A stretch of DNA of 64,000 bases from a phage: the sequence record NC_135731.1; one strand, given 5' to 3'. The position numbers were made by a program, and so were the translations under genes. Positions 40,396 to 53,557 of the stretch are shown here, piece by piece (position 1 is the stretch's first letter; every line of letters starts with the position of its first letter). The notes under the pieces are model-generated. The model was not told where the DNA came from. It saw only the letters and a list, made by a program, of their open reading frames with translations, and did not search any database.

Positions 40396-40958
40396 CCTGA
40401 AGAGTCTGAATAAGTGTTTAAGTACCAGTCAGAGGAAAAGGTGAATGGTAGCCGAAGGGGGAGGGGGGTTTCTTGTATCTTTAATTTGTATATTATGCAT
40501 ACACTTGTAAACCAATCTCATCTGAATCTGTTTACCACACAAAGTGGATTGAGACAAATATTACCTATTAAACCTGAATTATTTATAGAAAATACCACAA
40601 CACCACTTAAGTCTTTGATTTTACACATAAATCCTACAGATATTCACCCTCCATATTTAACATACTTGTAACATATCCCATACTCTACCTGTCTGATCAA
40701 TTTCCCCAACCACATCCCCATATTTTCCCTTCCTGTACTACCCCTGCCCCGCCGGGAGTCCCGTCATATCTGGCTTTCCAGCAAATATCACACCCACAAA
40801 TATCATTGCCTGAAGAGGGTTTCATCCCATAATACATGCCTTACCTGAAGAGCGCTTCATATACCCCGTAAATTTTTTAATTGACCCCCCTCCCCGCCGC
40901 CGGAGAGGTTGGCTTTTCCCACACAGACCTGAAGAGTCAGCCAGAAATATCTGAAGAG
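40396..40958. repeat. five dispersed YCTGAAGAG direct repeats
   Basis: Copies at 40396, 40809, 40844, 40928, 40950 in non-coding DNA. Confidence 0.6.
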
Positions 40959-41240
40959 GGTCCAGTTCTACCCTGTCAGGAGCCGGTAGCGACTGGAGTG
41001 CTGCCAGGCGGACGAAATGGGAATACTTCTCATTCTTATAACAATTCTCAAATATCGAGGCAGTGAGGCAAATTAATAGGTTAGGCCGTTCACACAGTGG
41101 CACAACATTTGCAACCTATCTTGTGGGAGTGAATGAGAATACCTATCATTGTGAGAATAGTTATCATTACGGGCAATTTAACATAATACCCATTATGCGC
41201 ACCACTGGCGATACATACAGGGATTGATAACATGAGTTAC

Positions 41241-42102
41241 TGTTTACACACATAACAATTATATTTCTTACTATTTGTGTGGGATATAGTTAGCAGCCGA
41301 TAGATTAGATATTGACCTGCGGACTTCTGACCATCTAGACGTCTAAACGCCCACACAACAAGGCTTATACATACATCGCTGAATGTAAACAGGGCCGCAA
41401 AAATGCTACCATACAAGCTTGTAAATTTTTCATGCAGCACTTGACAAAGAGGAGAAAAACTTGTCTGACACAATATGACTTAATTGCCACAACATGACAC
41501 TTTTGCACACCTGATTGTTTGCATATCTAATAGTTTACATGGATAACTGTTCACATACTTATCATTTACATGATTGACTGTTTACACAGAGATGATAAGC
41601 CATGCCATTCGTTTGCATGATAACAATTAACCAGTTTACAATTAACAAGTTAATAATCTTTCGCTGGCTATGCCAGGTGACTAGGTCACCCCTTCAGGTG
41701 TTTCTATGACATAATATAAAAGCAGGGCAACTATTAGCAGATCTATAGTTGCCTTGCTTGTCATGTCATGATTAACTAAATACAAGGCAACTATGATCTG
41801 ATTAATAGTTTGCAGACAAACTATCACGGGGGTGATGGTTACTGCTTTTATATTATGTCGCGACTCCGTCGCGCCATGCCATTCGTTTGCATAGTTGCCT
41901 TATTGTTACGAATAAAACAATTGCATTGTTAATGATTTCTTATCTTTCTCTTAGTCATCTAATGATTCCAGTCAGTATAGTAATGTACAGTAAACATTAG
42001 ACGACTAAAGATTTCTCTGTTTATTATAACTTACCGTTACAATTTCGGACTGTTTACCAAGAATGTTGACACATAAGCTGATTTATGTTATGCAGTTTAC
42101 AC
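41241..42102. repeat. iteron cluster, at least 8 copies of GTTTACA-type motif
   Basis: Copies at 41241, 41534, 41548, 41565, 41580, 41633, 42051, 42095; plus duplicated CCATGCCATTCGTTTGCAT at 41590 and 41864. Confidence 0.6.
41656..41839. repeat. nested palindrome / cruciform-capable region
   Basis: 18-bp perfect inverted repeat GACATAATATAAAAGCAG (41688-41705 and 41822-41839) enclosing palindrome GGCAACTAT...ATAGTTGCC (41706-41733); GGTGAC-TAG-GTCACC at 41656. Confidence 0.65.
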
Positions 42103-42517
42103 GAATAATTATTTTATGCAGGTATTGACTATTCCGTTATTCCATGGTTGGAATAAATACTTAGCAGACTATAGAATGGTGAGCGTACGTAAATTCTGAG
42201 ATCTGGCGGCTATAGTTATACTCGATTTTTCACGTAGAACACGCTTTTGTGAGTGTGTAAGTGTATGACTTATAAAGATTTTTAGTTGTTGACAAGATAT
42301 TGAAGATGTGCATCAGGTTAAATTTTGTGCAATAGCGGCATTACGTGCAATCTTGAGAGAGAAAACGGGTAAAAATGGCCCTGCTACCACACAATGAAAA
42401 ATTATGCAATAGTTATTTTACATGTATGTTTGTACAGTGTGTGGGATTGATGGCTAGTCAATTATTCCACTTGCCAGGCTGGGCCGTTTGTGGTAGGAGA
42501 AATACAGACAAAAAGAA

Positions 42518-43444: not shown

Positions 43445-43717
43445 TTACTTACGGCGGCAGAATTCAAGCGTTTTTAATTGATAATCTTCCTCAGCCTGGA
43501 GTACAACCGCCTCGATCATTTCGTTGGCATTGTTGAAGCCATACCCTTTAGCGAACTCGTCCGCACCACCTTCGTGATCATGTTCTGCGTTCATCGCTTC
43601 CACAAAATGGAATTCCAAATTGTTGAGGTAGGGGCTTGATGTGCCGTCTTCTTTTTCGATGAGATCCCAAATAGCATTAAAACGTGATTCGACTTCTTGA
43701 TTAATCCAGCTTGACAT
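43445..43717 (-). CDS. hypothetical acidic protein (90 aa)
   Basis: ORF with GAGAGG RBS; promoter/hairpin element in 5' UTR. Confidence 0.5.
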   Translation of the reverse strand: MSSWINQEVESRFNAIWDLIEKEDGTSSPYLNNLEFHFVEAMNAEHDHEGGADEFAKGYGFNNANEMIEAVVLQAEEDYQLKTLEFCRRK

Positions 43718-43825: not shown

Positions 43826-43906
43826 AGGCAGGCCCGGTGATTGTCTCCCCCTGTTCCCAAGTGCCGCCCGTTTAATAAGAATAGCAAAAGGGGCCGAACA
43901 AGTCAA
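43826..43906 (-). promoter_or_regulatory. promoter plus conserved GC-rich hairpin leader (copy A)
   Basis: TTGACT-17 nt-TATTCT (43878-43906) followed by GGGAGACAATCACCGGGCCTGCC core (43826-43852); homologous to copies at 52847 and 52983. Confidence 0.5.
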
Positions 43907-43935
43907 CCCCAAAATCAGTACCAAAACACTTTTAT

Positions 43936-44247
43936 TTATACGGTCCGATCATTGGCCTTTGTCCAGGACCTGGCGATCCGTTTCCCGGTCACCTGGAACG
44001 GAGGCTGCATTGTGTGTAATGAGTCCAGAGTAAGGGAGGACCGTTTACGGCGTATCTTCAGGATCGCCAATGTATTGTCCATCTCACGGCCAGGTCCTGG
44101 GCGGTATGGTGTGCCTCCAGCGTTAAGGTTGATGATCTCATGTATTGAGATCCGGCGTTGTTTTGCTTCCGCATCTTTGAAGATAGCCAGCGGAGGCGCT
44201 ATGCGTTGCCGATACCAATCTAAAACGGTTGGCGTAATAGCGATCAT
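43936..44247 (-). CDS. hypothetical protein (103 aa), doubtful
   Basis: ATGA-coupled to upstream gene but 3' half overlaps GC-rich repeat-like DNA. Confidence 0.3.
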   Translation of the reverse strand: MIAITPTVLDWYRQRIAPPLAIFKDAEAKQRRISIHEIINLNAGGTPYRPGPGREMDNTLAILKIRRKRSSLTLDSLHTMQPPFQVTGKRIARSWTKANDRTV

Positions 44248-44435
44248 ATTTTACCCCCTATGTAGTCCGGTCGGTTTTTCTCTGTCATACGCTTAAGCAA
44301 TTCTTGCATGTTGCTTATGGCTTGTAGTGTATCCTCTTCAAGGGATGAATCAAGATAATCAGGATCATTCTTCACCTTGCAATGATTATGATAACGCAGT
44401 ACCGCCAGTACTTTTTTAACTTCTTCCGCTGTCAT
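44244..44435 (-). CDS. hypothetical protein (63 aa)
   Basis: ORF. Confidence 0.4.
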   Translation of the reverse strand: MTAEEVKKVLAVLRYHNHCKVKNDPDYLDSSLEEDTLQAISNMQELLKRMTEKNRPDYIGGKI

Positions 44436-44580
44436 TATCGCGCCTAAAACAATGAGTTAATATATAACACCAGATCGCTGACTACCAGGACAACATTAAT
44501 CAGCACATACCTAACCATAAAGGGAAAGATCGCCAGCATTGCCGCCACGATCCCCATGGTAATAATTATCTTTCTTATGG

Positions 44581-44865
44581 TTAACGGTTCACGTAAGTTT
44601 TCCCGTTCACGGTTATGGGCAGATCCTCCAGGTCTGGATCTTCCTTAAGGTCGCGAGCAAGCTCACCGCACCGGATACCCTCGAATCCGTAGTACTCTGT
44701 TGTGCCGTCCTTAAAAGTTTTAGCGGCAAGGCATAAGCGATAAGTAACCCCGATTTGATTGACGGCATGAATATCCGTTAGATTAACCTCTTTTGCCAGC
44801 TCTTTAGCCATTACAGGCGCATTAAGTCCAACAACCAGGGTAACCACTGCGATCATCTTTTTCAT
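44581..44865 (-). CDS. small secreted protein with signal peptide (94 aa)
   Basis: N-terminal MKKMIAVVTLVVGLNAPVMA signal-like sequence; AAGAGG RBS. Confidence 0.55.
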   Translation of the reverse strand: MKKMIAVVTLVVGLNAPVMAKELAKEVNLTDIHAVNQIGVTYRLCLAAKTFKDGTTEYYGFEGIRCGELARDLKEDPDLEDLPITVNGKTYVNR

Positions 44866-44956
44866 TGTGTCTATCCTCTTTCTGCTACGTTTAAGGCGGC
44901 GGTAACCGCCTGTTTATGCTTTGTTGGTTAATTTTCAGGTATCTGTATAAATTAAA

Positions 44957-45277
44957 CTATGCTGTACGCTCAACTATAACAACGGTTTGGGGGATCTCCC
45001 CTTCCACCACTAGTAAGGCCTTTTTCTGCGTGATAGATATCTTTACCCGTTGCAGCGTGGCGGTGAAGTCTTTCATTTCGTCACGCGGTGTTTTAGTGCA
45101 GTACCAGATCTCAGGCTTGCCGATCTGTAAGTTGCGTAAAAATTCCGTTTTGCCTGTTTTGTTTTTGTAACCGTTATAACCTTTATTGCTTTTCATGGTG
45201 TTTACCTCTTCTTTGTTCCAGGTGGCGGACCATTCCACCGCCTTATGTATTATGCTTTGTAAGATGGCTGTTGTCAA
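44957..45277 (-). CDS. hypothetical lysine-rich protein
   Basis: ORF; start uncertain (internal MKSNKGY possible). Confidence 0.4.
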   Translation of the reverse strand: MTTAILQSIIHKAVEWSATWNKEEVNTMKSNKGYNGYKNKTGKTEFLRNLQIGKPEIWYCTKTPRDEMKDFTATLQRVKISITQKKALLVVEGEIPQTVVIVERTA

Positions 45278-45538
45278 ACTATTTTAACGATAATCATCGT
45301 ACGCTTTATTAACCTGGCGGATATAACATTCAAAAGCCAGATCAATAGATTTATATTCACGGCTATACTCACCATAGGAAACCACATACATTTCTATAGC
45401 TTCCTCATATGCGAGGAGAATAGAATCTAAGCCTACGATCTCGGTCTTTGCAATAATAGCCATGATTTTTATCCTCTTTGTGGTTGGTGGGGCTTGTTGC
45501 TCCCTTTGATTTATATATTACAGTTTTATATGGTCATG

Positions 45539-45772
45539 TCAACTATTTTCAAAAAATTTTTCTGCTGTGATATTCTTCCCGGTAGGGTTCGCTACTTTCA
45601 AAATTCTATCATGCACCGGACGCCCGAAAGAATAAGATCCGTATACAGTAAACCAATAATCACCGTCAGGCTGTACTATTACCGCCGCATATGGTACGCC
45701 TTTCTCGTTATTGCTAACAAAATAGATCACATTGCCATTAATAGCCTCGGTGCGTTTAATTTGTTCCATCAT
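45539..45772 (-). CDS. hypothetical protein (77 aa)
   Basis: ORF with AGAGAGG RBS. Confidence 0.45.
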   Translation of the reverse strand: MMEQIKRTEAINGNVIYFVSNNEKGVPYAAVIVQPDGDYWFTVYGSYSFGRPVHDRILKVANPTGKNITAEKFFENS

Positions 45773-45836
45773 GATGATTTACCTCTCTTTATTTTCATAA
45801 TTTTATGCTGTAGGGGCCTTTTCGGCCCCGCCAGGT

Positions 45837-46121
45837 TTATTTATTGATAGCGTGCAGCGGGAAAGCTACGCCAGGTTGATAAATAACCTTTACAACCTCA
45901 TCAGGACAAAAGAAGTTGCAGAACTCACCGCAGTAGGCCTCATCCTCTTTCAACTCTTCATTAACATACTCAAAAAAGTAGTCGATGCTTGGATAATCCT
46001 GGCCGGGATTATAGTCAACCATCGTTAATAATAACTCTTGATCATTCCGTAGGATATGCATACCCGCTTTTAAGTATTTTGCTTCCATTTCTACTACATC
46101 GCCAGCGGTAACAATAGCCAT
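45837..46121 (-). CDS. hypothetical acidic protein (94 aa)
   Basis: ORF with GGAG RBS. Confidence 0.45.
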   Translation of the reverse strand: MAIVTAGDVVEMEAKYLKAGMHILRNDQELLLTMVDYNPGQDYPSIDYFFEYVNEELKEDEAYCGEFCNFFCPDEVVKVIYQPGVAFPLHAINK

Positions 46122-46322
46122 GATTTTAACTCCTATCTATCTGGTCAATGATTGGGGGCCTCCCCCTCGACAACTCTTATTATCCATATTGTCGGGAATG
46201 ATGCAAGTACTTCTTTAAAAATTTTTTAAGCTCCTTAGGGCCGTTGTAACGTCAAAACAATAAAGGCTATGCGATTGCATAGCCTGCTAGTGTTTAGGTC
46301 GCTGTAGGCCCTGCCTGGGGCC

Positions 46323-46673
46323 TTATTTTGCATTCTTGCCTGTATTGCCGCCACGGTACCAGCGTTTGCGGTGAAAATGGTAATAATCACCCTCGGCATT
46401 AAACATCAGATGATTTTCAATAACCAGCTTACGAAGGTGGGCCGGATCTTGTTCCATTCTTGCCAGATTCCGGCGGCTGTTACGTAAACGGATAAATTCC
46501 ATATTCAGGCCGTTGATTGCAGCATGGATGTTAAAGTAACCACCTTTGAGACGTTCACGCATGGTGTTAAGCTCAACACAATATACAGATTTCTCACAAA
46601 TCAAGGTATTAGCTAGGGCGCGGACCTGGGCAAGGTGGTTAAGCTCATTAAGGTAATATAATTTAACTTTCAT
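46323..46673 (-). CDS. hypothetical basic protein (116 aa)
   Basis: ORF with RBS. Confidence 0.45.
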   Translation of the reverse strand: MKVKLYYLNELNHLAQVRALANTLICEKSVYCVELNTMRERLKGGYFNIHAAINGLNMEFIRLRNSRRNLARMEQDPAHLRKLVIENHLMFNAEGDYYHFHRKRWYRGGNTGKNAK

Positions 46674-46690
46674 AAAATCACCTGTTGAAA

Positions 46691-46999
46691 TTAGTTTGAG
46701 AAAACATCGTTCACAATAGCGATCACAATGCCGCCCACCTTGTCACGGTCAACAATGCACAAATCACCATAGATCATGTGGTAGTCTGGATGATCTTTCA
46801 CAGAATAGTCAATAAGTGTTTTCTTGTCATCCAGCTTCGTAACTTCCATTCTCATAACGATATGAGAATCATCAAAGGCATTATTCCGAAAAGTCATAGC
46901 CTGACCGCCAGGGCACCCAGTGATCTCCACTTCCACACCATCTACGATCTGACCATCAAAGAAATAAAGATTATTAGCCTGGATAAACATGTCTATCAC
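46691..46999 (-). CDS. hypothetical protein (102 aa)
   Basis: GGAGTGA RBS; preceded by repeated hairpin-promoter element. Confidence 0.5.
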   Translation of the reverse strand: MIDMFIQANNLYFFDGQIVDGVEVEITGCPGGQAMTFRNNAFDDSHIVMRMEVTKLDDKKTLIDYSVKDHPDYHMIYGDLCIVDRDKVGGIVIAIVNDVFSN

Positions 47000-47047
47000 T
47001 CCTTGTTAACTGCGTGGTATTTTAACAGGGTTTAAATTTACTTTATT

Positions 47048-47098
47048 GATGGCCCTGGAGTCAAGGCCATCTAAAAATAAATTTTACAGGCCTACAAT
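47048..47098 (-). promoter_or_regulatory. repeated hairpin-promoter element, copy 1
   Basis: Conserved about 50-bp element with palindrome GATGGCC...GGCCATC; on minus strand reads TTGACT-17 nt-GTAAAT. Confidence 0.45.
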
Positions 47099-47274
47099 CT
47101 CTTTGATTCGTTTAACCGCTGCTGGGGGTAAAAATTATGGTAACCAATCACGCGAGTGATACTAATCGCCGTTTGATGATCTTCATAGTCGCCCTTGAAG
47201 ATTTCTTGACCGTCAAGCAGCACGGCAATTTTTTCTTCTTTTTTGAAGTTAATAACGCGGATATTGTTGCTCAT
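47092..47274 (-). CDS. hypothetical protein (60 aa)
   Basis: ORF with GGAG RBS. Confidence 0.4.
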   Translation of the reverse strand: MSNNIRVINFKKEEKIAVLLDGQEIFKGDYEDHQTAISITRVIGYHNFYPQQRLNESKRL

Positions 47275-47520
47275 TTTGTTTCTCCTTTCTGGTTTTTGTG
47301 GTGGTGGGGATTAGCTCCACCGTTGATTGTTATTATCCACATTCCGGACCGGATTGCAACACCCCGGAAGAAAAAATTTTTTTTTAAAAGATAGGCCCCC
47401 ATGATCGGGGGCCGTTATCAGTTACTTACAGCGATAAAATACATCCCTACGCCTAACAATATTTCAAGGGCGATGATCTCAAGCCATACCATAGCACGGC
47501 GCGCCTTATCGGTGCGGGGC

Positions 47521-47706
47521 TTATCCTTGGTTGTCATCGTCTCCCTCTTCCCTCCTGTTAGCAGTTACGTGGTTTGCAATGGCCCCCAGGAGTATTATCA
47601 CCACGCACATTGCAAGAAAAATTATCTCTGTCGTTGTTCGATCCATTGTTATAAAATTCCTCAAGATCAGGCCTGAAAATAAAGCGTTCGTTATTGAATC
47701 CGTCAC
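47521..47706 (-). CDS. small membrane protein (61 aa), tentative
   Basis: Hydrophobic core LAMCVVIILLGAIA; overlaps alternative-frame ORF. Confidence 0.3.
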   Translation of the reverse strand: MTDSITNALFSGLILRNFITMDRTTTEIIFLAMCVVIILLGAIANHVTANRREEGDDDNQG

Positions 47707-47756
47707 GCCAGGCGGCTGGCTTCAAATCTTCACTAAAGGGATTAATTAACGTGGCA

Positions 47757-48161
47757 TTATTTAAACGGTTGGCCCACATATTTTCTATTCCTCTCAAATA
47801 GGCGATCCGCCTCAGTTAAACATATCTCATGGGCTTGATCTCTGGTTTTAGCCTCATCAAAAACCTGTTGTGCCAGGCTGCAGCGTAGGGAGACTGGAAG
47901 ATCACTATAATAGGCGTTGACAAACGTTTGAGCGTCGTACAGGTCTGAAAATACTTTACCCTTTCTATTATTCCCCTTGTCAACAATTGCAAGGATAACC
48001 AATACAGTAGTTGCGACTACCCCCAGGAAAATAGATATAATAAACCATAAAAAGGCGGATCTTCCCATCTTGCCAGCGATCCAGGCGTTAAACAAGGCAA
48101 CCAATACAGCCAAAATAATAAATTCCATTCTATGTACCTCTTTTACAGTTCTGATTAACAA
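47757..48161 (-). CDS. membrane protein (134 aa)
   Basis: Two hydrophobic helices near N-terminus. Confidence 0.5.
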   Translation of the reverse strand: MLIRTVKEVHRMEFIILAVLVALFNAWIAGKMGRSAFLWFIISIFLGVVATTVLVILAIVDKGNNRKGKVFSDLYDAQTFVNAYYSDLPVSLRCSLAQQVFDEAKTRDQAHEICLTEADRLFERNRKYVGQPFK

Positions 48162-48192
48162 TAAGGCGGCAAATATGCCGCCTGTTACCTGA

Positions 48193-48573
48193 TTAAAAAT
48201 TATCGCCGTAAATCTTTCCGCTTTCTACCCATACCACCACGCGAGGCATACTATCCCACACGTCTTGTTTTAGATTGAGCGCGTGCAATTCTTCGGTGGT
48301 GCTCATACCGGGCACGGGCTGATTGTATACTGCAAAACGACCGCCTGCATAATCATAGGCCAGGGTTAAATCACACTGGATCATCTTTTTGATCATGGCA
48401 TTAAGCATGGCGTTAGCCGCATATTGATCACGTTTTAAAGGCAACTCTTTGATTAGTTTGCGATAGTTTTCGATATGGTCGCACACTGTTTCACGTGGAA
48501 GATCTTTCATATCCTCGCGAAAGGTAACCAGGTTAAACATAACGGTGTCAATAGCTTTAGTAGTGTTTTTCAT
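48193..48573 (-). CDS. hypothetical protein (126 aa)
   Basis: ORF with AGAGG RBS. Confidence 0.5.
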   Translation of the reverse strand: MKNTTKAIDTVMFNLVTFREDMKDLPRETVCDHIENYRKLIKELPLKRDQYAANAMLNAMIKKMIQCDLTLAYDYAGGRFAVYNQPVPGMSTTEELHALNLKQDVWDSMPRVVVWVESGKIYGDNF

Positions 48574-48662
48574 AATGTTTACCTCTTTGTTTTGTGTGGG
48601 GGCAAACGTCTTGCCCCTTGAGTTTTAATATAGCAGGTTTTTAGATTATTGCAACACTTTAT

Positions 48663-49286
48663 TTATGAAAAACTCATCTCTCCATATTCATCCACATCAA
48701 ACCGCCAATCATTGGCCTCAATAAGGCCGATCAGGTTTTCGGTAGAGAACTGTTCTAGATAGGCCTCCTCCAGGTCTACGTAAACCTTGCGGGATAGCTC
48801 CCGTACCGTCTCGGTGATCAGCTCTTCCAGATCTTCCACTTTATTTTCTTGTTTGGCGGTCAGGTATAGCCATGTAGTATCGATGTACCCGCTTACAGTG
48901 TTTTCGTGACTATAGCGGCTATATGGATCACGCTCAACGCTTGCGGATAGTTCGCCATCGTGCATTGTGCCGAACAAGTGACGAATTGATCGGAACTTGG
49001 TCAGGGCCTTTACTTTACGCAAGAATTTTTCTAAATCCACGTTTTCCGCACTGATTGACGCGCCGTCACCCTGGCACCAAAAGCCTGACCAATGTACTTC
49101 GGTATCTTCAAGGCCATACTCTGGAAAAACATATTCTTTATAGTATTCAATTACACTTTCTGCAAAAAAGTTATCCCCGCTGTGTTCTTCTCTTTCGCGT
49201 ACCATTTCAATGGCTTTTTCTTTTTGTTCGTCGGTCAGCACGTCGAAAGATAAATTGTAACCTGTGGTAATGTTAACGGTGGTCAT
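48663..49286 (-). CDS. hypothetical acidic protein (207 aa)
   Basis: ORF with AGGAGAA RBS; consensus promoter upstream. Confidence 0.55.
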   Translation of the reverse strand: MTTVNITTGYNLSFDVLTDEQKEKAIEMVREREEHSGDNFFAESVIEYYKEYVFPEYGLEDTEVHWSGFWCQGDGASISAENVDLEKFLRKVKALTKFRSIRHLFGTMHDGELSASVERDPYSRYSHENTVSGYIDTTWLYLTAKQENKVEDLEELITETVRELSRKVYVDLEEAYLEQFSTENLIGLIEANDWRFDVDEYGEMSFS

Positions 49287-49343
49287 GATATTTTCTCCTG
49301 TTTTCTTTGTTAGTGGCGGGAAGTTTTCCCGCCTATGTTTTTA

Positions 49344-49371
49344 ATTATACTTATTGAGATTTACTTGTCAA
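49344..49371 (-). promoter_or_regulatory. sigma70-type promoter (minus strand)
   Basis: TTGACA-16 nt-TATAAT on minus strand. Confidence 0.55.
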
Positions 49372-49373
49372 CA

Positions 49374-49622
49374 CTATTTTTTTAAATTATTGTGGCGCAA
49401 AATGTTTAAAATCTCCTCAACGTCATCAACACGGCGGCAATTTTTAAACGCTACCAATTGCCCCATGATTTTAATCACTGGGCGGCCTTGCCAGTGCCCC
49501 TGAAGAAAGCGCGCCTTGACTTTATCGGTGGAACTATCGCGCCACCAAATAGCCTTGTTGTTGCAGCAGTAAAAATTATTCAGGATAACATCAACTTTAT
49601 CAAAATTTTTTAATTTACGCAT
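49374..49622 (-). CDS. hypothetical protein (82 aa)
   Basis: ORF with GGAG RBS. Confidence 0.45.
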   Translation of the reverse strand: MRKLKNFDKVDVILNNFYCCNNKAIWWRDSSTDKVKARFLQGHWQGRPVIKIMGQLVAFKNCRRVDDVEEILNILRHNNLKK

Positions 49623-49841
49623 GGCGTTTACTCCTTTCTCTCTTTGATGTGGTTAGTATAGCTAACCTGTTGACGATGTCAATGATATTTTTAACGCCAT
49701 AAAACGGCCCTGGGCGATGTTTTCAGGTTAAAGGGGGGCGATTGCATAGGTGGGGGCCTTTTTGGCACTTATAGGGCCAACCAGGGGCGCTATTCGTAGG
49801 ATAGAAATAAAAAGCCCCGCCATTGTGCGGGGCGTTGGTTG

Positions 49842-50039
49842 TTATTTGTCTTTATGGCGGTATCGTTCCGCCTGTCGTTCACGTTCCAAAAGCAGGCCCG
49901 GTAATTTGCGATCATAGTGATTCCTCCAGATCTTCCCGAACCTTTTCGGCTTATTCAGTTTATTGTTACGCTGGCGGCGTTCCGGCAGCTCTTCGGAATC
50001 GTGGGGGCGCTTTACAATTTTTTCGAAATTAATTTTCAT
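49842..50039 (-). CDS. hypothetical highly basic protein (65 aa)
   Basis: Arg/Lys-rich; ATGA-coupled to upstream gene. Confidence 0.4.
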   Translation of the reverse strand: MKINFEKIVKRPHDSEELPERRQRNNKLNKPKRFGKIWRNHYDRKLPGLLLERERQAERYRHKDK

Positions 50040-50383
50040 AAATTTCCCCCTTTACTGATTTCAATATTTGCCTGAATCGCCCGGATACGCCGTTTTATAA
50101 CCTCCTGATCCTTGCAATCATATCCCCAAAAGTCTACGATCTTTGCGCCTCCGGCCTTTAGGCGGTATAGTGTTTCTTGCATCTTGTAAGCTGGGATCGG
50201 TCGCGGTGTTACCTGGTCGCCTCTCTCATCTTTGTACTTGATTATGCAGTCTTCGTTGTCGTTGAATACCCAAAATGGGTATTCTGTGAGCGCGTTGCTA
50301 TCTTTTTCGTTTTTAGATTGGATCTTGTTTACAATTAAAGCCGTAGCAATAGCGCCAATAATAAAACTAGCCCCGCTGATCAT
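50036..50383 (-). CDS. hypothetical protein with N-terminal membrane anchor
   Basis: N-terminal ISGASFIIGAIATALIV. Confidence 0.5.
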   Translation of the reverse strand: MISGASFIIGAIATALIVNKIQSKNEKDSNALTEYPFWVFNDNEDCIIKYKDERGDQVTPRPIPAYKMQETLYRLKAGGAKIVDFWGYDCKDQEVIKRRIRAIQANIEISKGGNL

Positions 50384-50456
50384 GTACTTTCTCCTTTCAT
50401 GGTGTTAATAAATTATCTTTATAGACGGCCCTGCAGCCAGGACCACCGAAAAATAA

Positions 50457-50702
50457 CTATTTCACAATGCCTACAAAACAGATCCCGCCTTCACCTATAT
50501 AAGCAATGTCGGTAATTTTATAATTTGTTAAGATCCGCGTATTCAGCTCGTTAATAAAATCGGTCATCGCGTTGGTGTAGTTGTCTTCCATGTCCAGGGA
50601 ATAATCCCAGGTGTAAACCTTTTTACGTCCGAAGCCTTTTACCATGATCCGGGCGCTTTTGGTGTTGGTGGGCGCATAATATTTTGTGATTAGTGCTGCC
50701 AT
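50457..50702 (-). CDS. hypothetical protein (81 aa)
   Basis: GAGGAG RBS; preceded by repeated element copy 2. Confidence 0.5.
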   Translation of the reverse strand: MAALITKYYAPTNTKSARIMVKGFGRKKVYTWDYSLDMEDNYTNAMTDFINELNTRILTNYKITDIAYIGEGGICFVGIVK

Positions 50703-50743
50703 GGTTTTAACTCCTCATTAGTTCAGTGTTAACAGTGTAAAGT

Positions 50744-50794
50744 TTACTTTATTGATGGCCATGGAGTCAAGGCCATCTGAAAATAAATTTTACT
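50744..50794 (-). promoter_or_regulatory. repeated hairpin-promoter element, copy 2
   Basis: Same conserved element as 47048 and 51365. Confidence 0.45.
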
Positions 50795-51131
50795 CGTTTT
50801 CTTCCAGCTCTGAAAGCTCTTCTTTCACTTCTTCCAGCTCTGTCTGCAATTCCTGGTATTCTTCATCGTCCTCAATATCCAGGCTGTCGATGTAGTCGCT
50901 AAATCCGCAGCGGTAAGCGATAGGATCTAACTCCTTGAGGATACGCGACGGAAGAAAAGAAATGTTTCCGATCATAATTTCGCCGTAGATCTCGTCTAAC
51001 CATTCATCATAGTTTTCGTCGTACTTGTCCTCGTCGATTTCAAAGTTATCGATCTTGTTCTCAAGGTCTGCGATCTGTTTTTTCAGCGCGGCGATCTGCA
51101 TAGCTTTTTCTGCGGCGGTCATAGTAGTCAT
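50790..51131 (-). CDS. hypothetical highly acidic coiled-coil protein (113 aa)
   Basis: Asp/Glu-rich; GGAGAA RBS; promoter at 51183-51210. Confidence 0.5.
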   Translation of the reverse strand: MTTMTAAEKAMQIAALKKQIADLENKIDNFEIDEDKYDENYDEWLDEIYGEIMIGNISFLPSRILKELDPIAYRCGFSDYIDSLDIEDDEEYQELQTELEEVKEELSELEENE

Positions 51132-51182
51132 GGTGTTTTCTCCTTTTGTGTGTTCTGGGAAGTTTTCCCGTTTACGTGTTTA

Positions 51183-51210
51183 AGTATACCGATTTGGGTT
51201 AGCTTGTCAA
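51183..51210 (-). promoter_or_regulatory. sigma70-type promoter (minus strand)
   Basis: TTGACA-16 nt-TATACT on minus strand. Confidence 0.5.
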
Positions 51211-51364
51211 TTAAAAATTTAAGAAAAATTTTGCAAAACTGTTGGCGCTACTCATTAACATTTGCGCCAGGATGTAACCGACAATGCAAACGATAATAGT
51301 TACCTTTGTGTATTGGCGTGCAGTGCTCATCTTAAAGCCCCCTTTTTCGCTTAGTTGAGACTAG

Positions 51365-51410
51365 TTTACTTTATTGATGGCCCTGGAGTCAAGGCCATCT
51401 GAAAATAAAC
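51365..51410 (-). promoter_or_regulatory. repeated hairpin-promoter element, copy 3
   Basis: Same conserved element; precedes a 39-aa membrane peptide ORF. Confidence 0.45.
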
Positions 51411-51815
51411 TTAATAAGTTTTCAGTACTTTCCCGTCCAACCTGTCAAGCTGGATCTCGATAGCTGTAGAAAACCTATTGTACACCACGTCGCCCATAGA
51501 ATCCAACCAGTCTATGACATTATACACTTGCTCTTTGTTCTTGCAGGTCCGGATCCGTTTCATGATGTAAGCCGGATCAATATTGGTACTCTCGTTGGTG
51601 TTCCCCTGTACCTGGTTTGCCGTATTAGTTACATCTTTAATGGCCTTTACCACCACCTGGAATGGCTTTAAGGTGCCTTTTGCGTTCATCTCACGCGCTT
51701 TTGCGGCGCGGTTGTTATATGTTACACAACGGCGGCAAATGTTGATCAAATGCATGTCAATAATTTTTTCATCGTTTGCCAGTTCGTTCATGATGCGGCG
51801 TACGTTCTTATTCAT
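51411..51815 (-). CDS. hypothetical protein (134 aa)
   Basis: ORF with AAGGAAA RBS; promoter at 51864-51891. Confidence 0.5.
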   Translation of the reverse strand: MNKNVRRIMNELANDEKIIDMHLINICRRCVTYNNRAAKAREMNAKGTLKPFQVVVKAIKDVTNTANQVQGNTNESTNIDPAYIMKRIRTCKNKEQVYNVIDWLDSMGDVVYNRFSTAIEIQLDRLDGKVLKTY

Positions 51816-51863
51816 GATCTTTTTCCTTCGTGTTGGCGGGAAACATTCCCGCCTTTTGTGTAT

Positions 51864-51891
51864 AGTTTACTTAAATTTTGCAGCGTGTCAA
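51864..51891 (-). promoter_or_regulatory. sigma70-type promoter (minus strand)
   Basis: TTGACA-16 nt-TAAACT on minus strand. Confidence 0.45.
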
Positions 51892-51897
51892 CAATTT

Positions 51898-52296
51898 TTA
51901 TTCGTGGGCGCATGTTACAATGTGCTTTTTATAGCCCAGGCGGTCAGCAAGTGCCGACAAAAACTCTTCTTCATAGATCCAGCCGTTGGCAGTGATCCCC
52001 ATAGCATTTAATGCGCTCTCAAGTGCTGCGTTAGCTTTATCATAACCGTGACCGCTCGCCTTCCCGCCAGTATAGCCGTACTTATTGTTCTTGTTGTCGT
52101 GTATCCAAAAAACGCAGTAGTGAGTGTTCCCGCTGGCGGCGGCATAATACCGGATCTCAGCTACTTCGTGCAAATTATTGTCATCGTCCAGGCCCACCAG
52201 ATTATAAGCCTTATAAAATCCACGATCACGGCGGCAGTTCTTGACATCAGAAAAAGAAAAGTCCGCATTATCAAAATTAAAGGTGGTGGTTTTCAT
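51898..52296 (-). CDS. hypothetical protein (132 aa)
   Basis: ORF with AGAGGA RBS. Confidence 0.5.
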   Translation of the reverse strand: MKTTTFNFDNADFSFSDVKNCRRDRGFYKAYNLVGLDDDNNLHEVAEIRYYAAASGNTHYCVFWIHDNKNNKYGYTGGKASGHGYDKANAALESALNAMGITANGWIYEEEFLSALADRLGYKKHIVTCAHE

Positions 52297-52360
52297 GATT
52301 TTATCCTCTTGGTGTCTTTTGTGCTTTTAGTGTATTTGGTGTCGTACTATATGTCAATAC

Positions 52361-52558
52361 TTATTTTTTATTAAACCAGTGGTTGATCTGGCCTTTTGTC
52401 AGGGCGCAACGATTAAGCTGTTGCCGGGTATAGCTCTGACCACGACGGAATTTATAAAGGCCTTGCCCGTTGTTGATGGTTACATCCACCCGGCAAATCA
52501 CTTGATCCGTGACCACCTGGCGAGTGTTGCGACGTACTTTGATTCCGTAGGCGTTCAT
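52361..52558 (-). CDS. hypothetical basic protein (65 aa)
   Basis: ORF with AGAGGA RBS; minus-strand TTGACA-17 nt-TATTCT promoter upstream. Confidence 0.45.
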   Translation of the reverse strand: MNAYGIKVRRNTRQVVTDQVICRVDVTINNGQGLYKFRRGQSYTRQQLNRCALTKGQINHWFNKK

Positions 52559-52802
52559 GATTTTTTATCCTCTTTGTTAATTAGTGCGGTGTTGTTCACC
52601 TTGCGATAATAAGAATAACAAGAACTGCCCGAGCTGTCAACCATTATGTAAAATTATTTTTTGGGTAGAATTCTCCAGCCGCCACCCCCTGCCAGGTTTG
52701 CAAGCTTTCACTCTCCCACCTGGTCAGTTAGGTCCTGCTAGGGCTGGCCCCGCCAGGTTGCAGCGGTTGACGCACTATGTTAGAAAAATTTTTTGAAAAG
52801 TG

Positions 52803-52925
52803 TTGACAACGGCCCCACCAGGTGGCACAATATACATATCGAAAGGACGGCAGGCACCGGTGACGGGGGAGACAACCACCGGGGATGGGCGCTGCATAAA
52901 ATGAGAACGGTTATCATTATCATTT
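52803..52925 (+). promoter_or_regulatory. promoter plus conserved GC-rich hairpin element (copy C), possible small RNA
   Basis: TTGACA with CCACCAGGTGG palindrome, then GGCAGGCACCGGTGACGGGGGAGACAACCACCGGGG core; no + strand ORF follows. Confidence 0.4.
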
Positions 52926-52946
52926 AAAAATTTATGCAAAAAGTCC

Positions 52947-53040
52947 TTGCTTTCTTTGTCCTGTGTGATACTATAATAACAAGCCGGGGCAGTAGGGGCC
53001 GGGAGACAATCACCGGGCCTGCCCGTTATTCTGCAAACGA
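52947..53040 (+). promoter_or_regulatory. TATAAT box plus conserved GC-rich hairpin element (copy B), possible small RNA
   Basis: TATAAT at 52973; core GGGGCAGTAGGGGCCGGGAGACAATCACCGGGCCTGCCC then GTTATTCTGC. Confidence 0.4.
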
Positions 53041-53180
53041 GAATGATTATCATTCAAAATTCTAAATGAGAACTCCTCGCATTTAATAAATTTAATTAGC
53101 ATGCTAATTACCCTCCGTAACAATTTCCTATAAAACAGTATCCCATAAAATATTCCCATATAGAAATTTTAAAAATCCAT

Positions 53181-53557
53181 TTCTGAAAACGAAAAATCGA
53201 TTTCGTCCCCAAAAATTTTAGGTCGAGAGCCGGAACGATTTCCAGAAAATCCGATTCAGAAAACGAAAAACAAATCGAGTACTGAGAAATTTATCGAGAA
53301 AAATTTTCAGAAAATTCAATCTTTGAAACGAAAAACAGATCGAGTACCTGGAAAGCTGCACCGCAACTTCAAGATAGTGGTTAGATTGTTACCATAGAAG
53401 GTCAAGGGTAAGTGGAGGGAGTTATAGTAGAAGGATGTGAGTATGTGCAGGAAATCTGTAATGGTAGTCTGGAATATGGTGCAAACGATAGGATGAGTTG
53501 TTCAGCTCATCGTGTCTACCCTGAAAAATCCATTTTAGTTTTCGATCCGTTTTCTGA
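53181..53557. repeat. iteron array (3 direct and 1 inverted copy) in 1.1 kb non-coding region
   Basis: TTCnGAAAACGAAAAAnnnATCGA at 53181, 53255, 53322 and inverted at 53539. Confidence 0.6.

Follow-up and report, generated by a model that had tools for sequence, protein, structure and literature searches.

We examined a 64,000-nucleotide (nt) stretch of phage DNA (NC_135731.1; hereafter the window) for a short element that occurs three times in its early region, as copies A, B and C, each downstream of a promoter. By database comparison, this region is 100% identical to that of the Escherichia phage phiWec196, an rV5-like coliphage, and more than 100 other Vequintavirus (rV5-like) genomes match it at 93-99% identity. 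From about 40 kb to 64 kb, every credible gene is on the - strand; these are small, early-type open reading frames (ORFs) to which no function is assigned, and the proteins of the neighbouring genes are all without known function. A repeat search revealed several families of repeated terminator-promoter cassettes in this region.

The element was recognized by a 17-mer, GGGAGACAAYCACCGGG, which has exactly three matches in the window, at 43833-43849 on the - strand (A) and at 52867-52883 (C) and 53001-53017 (B) on the + strand. The chance expectation is 0.13, none of 100 shuffles reached three matches, and no further match was present in the window when up to three mismatches were allowed. The original prediction had thus placed and spelled the three copies correctly. 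The identity extends over 29 nt at 93% between A and B and over 19 nt at 95% between A and C, and the invariant core across the copies is the 14-mer GAGACAAWCACCGG.

All three copies in the window are coupled to promoters, as had been claimed, those of A and C being detected by a promoter scan and that of B having a perfect TATAAT. The B promoter escaped the spacing rule of the scan because its -35 hexamer is 19 nt away or its -10 box is of the extended type; the homologous place in the divergent relatives L006 and L018 reads TTGACA-17-TATTAT. The core starts 25-37 nt past the sigma70-type -10 box, never overlaps the promoter and is not palindromic. Its orientation to the promoter is the same in A, B and C, although A is on one DNA strand and B and C are on the other.

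Table 1. Coordinates in the window of the three copies, their promoters and the features around them
Feature	Position	Strand	Description
Gene 3' of copy A	43445..43717	-	90 amino acids (aa); phrog_7287, unknown function
Second promoter	43801-43772	-	TTGACA-18-TAACAT; homologous to P168, a promoter annotated in rV5; separates copy A from gene 43445-43717
Copy A, transcribed element	43826..43871	-	Hairpin CUUG-GGAA-CAGG (43861-43850), then invariant GAGACAATCACCGG (43847-43834)
Promoter of copy A	43906-43878	-	TTGACT-17-TATTCT, TG-extended; promoter scan
Leftward early-gene promoter	52612..52640	-	At the border of the gene-free gap; restarts the early genes
Spurious ORF over C and B	52775..53053	-	92 aa; annotated as hypothetical protein (rV5 ORF198, Murica179, others); no ribosome-binding site annotated
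Promoter of copy C	52803..52831	+	TTGACA-17-CACAAT with TG; promoter scan
Copy C, transcribed element	52838..52900	+	Hairpin CCG-GUGA-CGG (52857-52866), GG, invariant GAGACAACCACCGG (52869-52882), then GGGGAUGGGCGCUGC
Fur-box-like palindrome after C	52903..52921		16/19 to Fur consensus; best match in the window
Promoter of copy B	52947..52977	+	TTGCTT, 19-nt spacer, perfect TATAAT (52972-52977); alternatively extended -10 TGTGATACT
Copy B, transcribed element	52984..53032	+	CCGG (52984-52987) pairs with CCGG (52999-53002); invariant GAGACAATCACCGG (53003-53016); ends in GUUAUUCU
Fur-box-like palindrome after B	53039-53057		15/19 to Fur consensus; second best in the window
Third box, degenerate	53065-53083		Follows the copy B box
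Three iteron-like repeats, 57 nt	53159..53354		Spacing 74 and 65 nt; core CGATCGAGTAC; AT-rich DNA; repeat family D3

A promoter-coupled non-coding repeat conserved across phage lineages

A 116-nt query around copy B retrieved this module from 265 phage records, the hosts being Escherichia, Klebsiella, Salmonella, Pectobacterium, Cronobacter, Enterobacter, Serratia and Aeromonas. The genera include Certrevirus (Pectobacterium/Cronobacter/Enterobacter), Seunavirus (Salmonella), Mydovirus (Klebsiella), Phapecoctavirus and Justusliebigvirus. Outside Vequintavirus, the part of module B that is kept consists of the core and the tail that follows it, and it is mostly unannotated in the divergent genera. 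Module A was present in 262 records and is kept in Phapecoctavirus, Certrevirus and Justusliebigvirus; in Certrevirus and Justusliebigvirus copy A, too, is accompanied by a palindromic box. The cores of B and C have zero variable sites among close relatives, with the exception of the Y/W position. Lack of conservation in related genomes was, together with a lack of transcription from B and C, to refute the original prediction; as to conservation, the outcome is decisively the opposite, since several phage subfamilies have kept the element.

Scans of IMG/VR and of metagenome contigs extended this distribution. The 14-mer GAGACAAWCACCGG is identical in uncultured phage contigs, among others Ga0255088/90/98, Ga0228700_1000372 and a 215-kb contig, with six or more copies per contig, and these contigs show no other DNA similarity to known phages. 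The 14-nt core is common to unrelated-looking uncultured phages at high copy number. Phage-type copies from a core-only search of IMG/VR were all promoter-coupled. Each metagenomic copy lies 25-26 nt past a TATAAT-like hexamer and directly 3' of the terminator of the preceding gene; the set includes copies recovered without requiring a -10 box, and these have the same spacing. In one metagenomic context, a U-run comes after the element, then a TGTAAC..TGTAA repeat and another promoter with its gene, as in the layout of copy A. In the other, a lone element faces a convergent gene with a strong intrinsic terminator about 45-60 nt downstream, which is the situation of B and C. Cellular genomes served as a control: the 120 occurrences of the motif were scattered over phyla, single-copy and chance-like, and a strong -10 hexamer (TATAAT, TATACT, TACAAT or TATTAT) was found within 45 nt upstream of none of them. 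No homologue of the core was found in E. coli genomes, where only the AT-rich box was matched, at an unrelated intergenic site (E=9).

Known RNA families did not account for the element. Rfam 15 gave no match over the whole window at the gathering threshold, only chance hits, none of them on the element, in 52560-53420 at E<=10, and no match to the element in the loci of relatives or of metagenomic phages. Our literature search found no description of the motif, of small RNAs in this phage group or of its replication origin. The element is a real, conserved non-coding motif family of unassigned function that is apparently undescribed.

We considered whether the repeats might be passengers, that is, parts of a mobile or recombinogenic regulatory cassette kept by its spread or by recombination, with a 14-mer that has no function of its own. 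The several families of repeated terminator-promoter cassettes would suit such an account, as would copy C, which in Vequintavirus replaced a different RNA (module X, described below) at the same place, and the small gene inserted beside the locus in some relatives with CCAGGTT repeats flanking it. PeSL cassettes of T4-type phages offer a parallel, being repeated modules of a promoter and a stem-loop among small early genes in a hyperplastic region. Their stem-loop is an upstream terminator, and what is repeated is the cassette itself. Here, in contrast, the invariant 14-mer is 3' of the start site and is kept far beyond one genus. The exact 14-mer is retained across lineages in which the flanks have diverged beyond recognition, which speaks for selection on the sequence itself; moreover, substitutions within Vequintavirus avoid the core, and across subfamilies A and B are not scattered but keep their syntenic positions and their orientation. 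A passenger origin is hence very unlikely in our estimation.

The linear core, its hairpin and the favoured reading

The element had been described as a GC-rich hairpin. In 23 of the 26 sequence types, a hairpin ends 0-3 nt short of the 14-mer, and the summed hairpin score was 204 versus 125 +/- 20 for shuffled sequences, with 0 of 1000 shuffles reaching 204. The stems differ while the pairing is kept: CCG/CGG in C, CUUG/CAGG in A, CCGG/CCGG in B and CCAG/CUGG in a relative, with CGG/CCG, CCUG/CAGG, CACUA/UAGUG and CACCG/CGGUG as further variants. Additional pairing around the core may take place in A, where an outer helix CGGGCGGC/GCCUGCCUG is possible, and in B, where GGGCAG (52987-52992) can pair with CUGCCC (53019-53024). 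Of the described hairpin, then, enrichment of a short one on the 5' side stands, whereas a stable hairpin as the defining feature does not, given weak folding scores and the lack of an RNAalifold consensus. The conserved feature is the linear 14-nt sequence, not the fold.

We propose, tentatively and with somewhat less than even confidence, that the copies give rise to independent, early, sigma70-driven mini-transcripts, the exposed 14-mer of which would be bound by, or pair with, a conserved partner. Early in infection, the host sigma70 RNA polymerase would read each copy as a very small transcription unit. The RNA would start a few nt past the -10 box and fold into a short hairpin of variable sequence, in many cases capped by a GNRA-like tetraloop. 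Immediately 3' of this hairpin would come the invariant GG-GAGACAAWCACCGG, probably in single-stranded form and enclosed by a loose outer helix. The functional part would be this exposed 14-mer, which a conserved partner, either a protein or an RNA complementary to it, would recognize, and multiple copies would supply dosage. Copies C and B would be tandem non-coding genes of a conserved control region, while copy A would be a third paralogue, separately conserved and directly upstream of an ordinary gene promoter. RNA is favoured because the coupling to promoters is invariable, the orientation is fixed, the distance to the -10 box is variable, the promoter is not overlapped and the hairpin stems vary with pairing kept. 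Three parts of this proposal are inferences: an RNA product, a single-stranded state of the 14-mer, and a mode of action through binding by a partner or through base pairing.

The original prediction had offered small RNAs, attenuators and regulator-binding leaders as possibilities, among which small RNAs remain the best reading. An attenuator or riboswitch leader was rejected, as a regulated gene and alternative terminator/antiterminator folds are both lacking and a promoter separates copy A from its gene. A precedent for the use of RNA against or with host factors in this phage group is the pseudo-ToxI of phiTE, a non-coding RNA of a virulent rV5-like phage in which a tandem 36-nt repeat mimics a known antitoxin (PMC3475682). 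It is intergenic, and its repeat copy number is linked to dosage, as proposed here for the copies of the element. Pseudo-ToxI itself was discarded as the identity of the element because its place, at 106714-106772 with tRNA genes on one side and structural genes on the other, is another locus; the present element, moreover, consists of dispersed single units with their own promoters and has no known model to mimic.

Several observations weigh against the proposed mini-transcripts. The folding energies are no better than those of shuffled sequences, with minimum free energy z-scores of -1.25, -1.77 and +0.26 for the three copies. RNAalifold detected no consensus fold beyond the palindromic box in MAFFT alignments of 18 B-type and 24 metagenomic copies. 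The register of the hairpin floats by +/-1 nt in a gap-free alignment, and since it occupies three registers, no single structure line is valid for a covariance model. The hairpin test, in addition, used related sequences and a best-of search. Copies B and C are without a downstream intrinsic terminator on the + strand in the window (none between 52400 and 53700), so discrete small RNAs are no more than putative here. The Aeromonas phage 2L372D lacks the core while retaining the boxes that follow it, and the Avunavirus version is divergent, so the core is dispensable for the locus in some lineages. Lastly, the G-U versus A-C asymmetry of the hairpins is only weakly sense-favouring (204 vs 192). 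Taken as a whole, the structural evidence for RNA is suggestive.

Since this asymmetry is weak, a hairpin or a binding site at the level of DNA has to be reckoned with. The 14-mer would then be a protein site in the initially transcribed region, serving as a roadblock operator or as a non-template-strand signal, similar to ops for RfaH, for a phage or host factor that controls these promoters. Such a role would fit the conservation of a linear sequence rather than a fold and the presence of other DNA operators alongside, namely Fur-like palindromes in rV5-like phages and TGTAAC..TGTAA repeats in metagenomic phages. It is at odds, however, with a distance to the -10 box that varies between 25 and 37 nt, with a site that is never over the promoter and is not palindromic, with a strict orientation to transcription that a double-strand operator would not need, and with an upstream hairpin that varies while keeping its pairing. 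Nor is the ops-like GGCGGTAG of some relatives conserved. We consider a DNA-level role unlikely.

The resemblance to ops was examined for its own sake. The RfaH ops element has conserved G4-G5-T6-A7-G8, a C3:G8 pairing and a T11 pause site, and its non-template strand can form a mini-hairpin (PMC5995543). Like ops, the phage core is a short, conserved, early-transcribed sequence that is read in one orientation; unlike it, the 14-mer bears no similarity to the ops sequence GGCGGTAGCGTG. An RfaH ops/JUMPstart element was rejected, as GGCGGTAG occurs in the B loop of some relatives only and varies among close relatives. The B-loop segment is GGCAGTAG in the window and GGCAACAG in Murica, and positions 9-12 differ from ops. 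A sigma54 promoter, in which the GGCAC motif would be read as part of TGGCAC..TGCA, was rejected for its mis-spacing, by inspection only.

Copy A bears on a further alternative. It is 9 kb from B and C, co-oriented with the neighbouring genes and without iterons. Its promoter overlaps the terminator-like hairpin of the upstream gene (43890-43910), and this overlap is kept in CR8, FKP3 and ukendt. The claim that copy A occupies the 5' leader of gene 43445-43717 was correct as to its upstream position; a simple leader it is not, with a second promoter in between (Table 1). The element might instead be a processivity or antitermination signal acting in cis, in the manner of HK022 put, lambda nut or rrn leaders, whereby a nascent hairpin and a linear box would modify the transcribing polymerase so that it reads through early terminators. 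For B and C, the polymerase would read into the iterons downstream and antisense into the converging early genes. The element shares with these systems that it is short, promoter-proximal, orientation-dependent, probably transcribed and present in more than one copy per phage genome, and that it appears to combine a small hairpin with a conserved linear box. The order of a hairpin with a GNRA-like loop and then a conserved box resembles the boxB-boxA order of rrn leaders, the early region is rich in terminator-promoter cassettes, and a gene in the same orientation lies 3' of copy A and of many metagenomic copies.

Nevertheless, a separate promoter is always present between the element and the gene and would bypass the element, and many copies lack a downstream gene altogether, facing a convergent gene across a strong terminator with nothing to antiterminate. 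Only three of the many early promoters of the window carry the element, and 33 sigma70 promoters are predicted in the rV5 genome (PMC3606486). There is no similarity in sequence to boxA or put and none to any Rfam model, and no N-, Q- or Nus-type partner was identified. An apparent 8-nt identity with the E. coli rrn leader, AGACAAUC, we take to be due to chance. On balance, antitermination is an improbable explanation, and the mini-transcripts described above remain our preferred reading.

The control region that holds copies C and B

Copies C and B are in a gene-free gap, and no + strand gene is 3' of either, as had been noted. The gap is covered in annotations by an ORF on the - strand, 52775-53053 (Table 1), which carries the peptide ITGRPGDCLP; the repeat had been predicted to create the TGRPGDCLP within it spuriously. 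The 35 variable sites among seven homologues are spread over the codon positions as 10/11/14, and the homologue in L014 has two in-frame stops. This ORF (rV5 ORF198) does not encode a protein, and the original prediction was right to call the shared peptide spurious. The finding amends the annotation of ORF198 and of its homologues in more than 100 genomes: what had been entered as a hypothetical protein is non-coding DNA, a conserved control region with at least one new family of putative RNA motifs.

B and C were also predicted to share a downstream tail, and it was borne out that GAGAAYRRTTATCATT has 4 matches versus 0.33 expected. By comparison with the Fur box consensus GATAATGATAATCATTATC (PMC4506495), this tail is a Fur-box-like palindrome. 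Fourteen sites in the window match the consensus at 14/19 or better, the mean upon randomisation being 3.2; the two behind C and B are the best. Two to four boxes follow module B in every genus examined, with a phage consensus of AATGAGAATnATTCTCATT, and they are the best-conserved part of the locus, persisting in lineages that have lost the core (Aeromonas 2L372D) or altered it (Avunavirus). These results suggest that what the phages read is the Fur of the host or a similar specificity. The phage boxes differ from typical Fur boxes in that they are 3' of the start sites, not over the promoter, and AATGAGAATnATTCTCATT has G for T at a symmetric position; binding by Fur is putative. A further Fur-box-like palindrome is at 41135-41168.

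Past the boxes are three iteron-like repeats, each with an internal palindrome and a GATC-containing core. This core, CGATCGAGWAC, is kept across genera, in PVP-SE1, Kashira (a Serratia phage), POP15, F5M1E and 19-1-2 and in Seunavirus, Certrevirus and Avunavirus. Three direct repeats in AT-rich, gene-free DNA that are conserved in relatives are what an iteron-type origin would present, and 53159-53354 is accordingly a candidate replication origin into which transcripts from B and C would run. The paper on the rV5 genome could not locate its replication origin (PMC3606486). No DnaA boxes were found near the locus. Between the third box and the iterons, at 53094-53109, is a perfect 16-nt palindrome, AATTAGCATGCTAATT, present with one change in JeffSchatz, which may be another protein-binding site. 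The original prediction had mentioned neither the Fur-box-like palindrome of the tail, nor the origin-like iterons after B, nor a family of elements beyond this genome.

Copy B, its Fur-box-like tail and the three iterons are syntenic in Vequintavirinae, Stephanstirmvirinae and Aeromonas phages, always against the flanking early genes. The architecture was read at eleven divergent loci, at which the region is within an array of - strand genes and is transcribed in the opposite direction. The order there is often a small + strand ORF, then a promoter with a structured RNA of about 80 nt (module X), then a second promoter with module B and its core; two to four AATGAGAATnATTCTCATT palindromes follow, then, in three genera (Seunavirus, Mydovirus and Avunavirus), a third promoter directly before the iterons, the three iterons and finally AAATATCA repeats. 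The control region would thus comprise promoter, RNA, Fur-box-like operators and iterons and be transcribed toward the probable replication origin, and transcription of C and B may serve the region as well.

Module X is absent in Vequintavirus, where copy C, a paralogue of B, occupies its place, and it is not in the window. It is a predicted promoter-driven RNA (…CGCCACCCCACGGCG-AAAGGCGGGGCUAAC…GAUCGCCGGUAG) at L019:2326-2415, L020:2373-2462, L021:2365-2454, L035:1024-1113 and others. Its RNAalifold fold has 15 pairs, 2 of them with compensatory changes, and a possible pairing of the loop with downstream sequence covaries, from CCCC/GGGG to CCAA/UUGG in FKP3. Module X had no match in Rfam.

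The arrangement raises the alternative that B and C serve an origin, their G-rich transcripts forming an R-loop or a primer or activating an iteron-bearing, AT-rich origin by transcription, as with T7 phi1.1A/B, T4 oriF/oriG or ColE1 RNA II; for copy A, this would mean a further origin or a relic. As at T7 phi1.1A/1.1B, at T4 oriF/oriG and at the iteron-bearing lambda ori, tandem promoters face an AT-rich, gene-free stretch with iterons, here three that are conserved and have GATC cores, and point against all neighbouring genes. The layout is the same in every genus, the third promoter of Seunavirus, Mydovirus and Avunavirus comes directly before the iterons, G clusters are on the non-template strand, and the rV5 origin is unmapped (PMC3606486). 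Yet the element is also present where iterons are absent, as at copy A, and the origin role of 53159-53354 is itself a prediction. Metagenomic contigs have six to ten or more copies, mostly beside ordinary genes, which cannot all be origins. The invariant AGACAAWCACC is not G-rich, DnaA boxes are missing nearby, and the GC skew merely follows the orientation of the genes and is uninformative on an origin. Service to an origin is therefore a quite doubtful explanation of the element as such, in comparison with the small RNAs that we favour.

A broader possibility may be stated, which we think unlikely to hold. The element could represent a new, widespread class of 'promoter-born' phage mini-RNAs, the 14-mer of which would capture, early in infection, a conserved component of the host, for instance a factor of defence or of RNA metabolism or some conserved RNA. 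Two genes of this class in rV5-like phages, together with a module X-type RNA in relatives and host Fur boxes, might constitute an iron-sensing, RNA-based control of a replication origin. Phages of the rV5 type (Vequintavirinae and Stephanstirmvirinae) are widely used candidates for therapy and biocontrol, and their early regions are almost wholly unannotated. If the RNAs are expressed, they would offer a handle on the early transcription programme, on the start site of replication and on a Fur-based reading of host iron status.

Other features of the region

At the edge of the locus, many Vequintavirus genomes have an extra - strand gene of 58 aa between the - strand promoter and copy C (L003:385-561 in JeffSchatz, corresponding to about 52700 in the window). 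It is flanked by CCAGGTT-containing repeats, and the site looks like a hotspot of insertion and deletion.

Among the repeated cassettes between the early genes is a 61-nt one with a terminator hairpin and a promoter, present four times (47035-47095, 50411-50471, 50741-50801 and 51363-51423). It is PeSL-like, and its -35 hexamer TTGACT, on the - strand, sits in the hairpin loop.

A second stretch without credible genes, of about 1.8 kb, is at 40700-42500, where + strand genes switch to - strand genes. It is crowded with repeats: CTGAAGAG four times, AAATATCA twice and ACATGAnTnACTGTTYACA three times, as well as an exact 18-nt inverted repeat at 41708/41842. Since the AAATATCA repeats of other genera are directly 3' of the iterons, the ancestral control region seems to have been split in Vequintavirus.

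A scan for tRNA and tmRNA genes found none. In the database comparison, about 16-22 INPHARED records labelled 'Campylobacter phage' (MG0656xx, host C. jejuni) were 94-99% identical to this coliphage region, and the host attribution or naming of these records looks doubtful.

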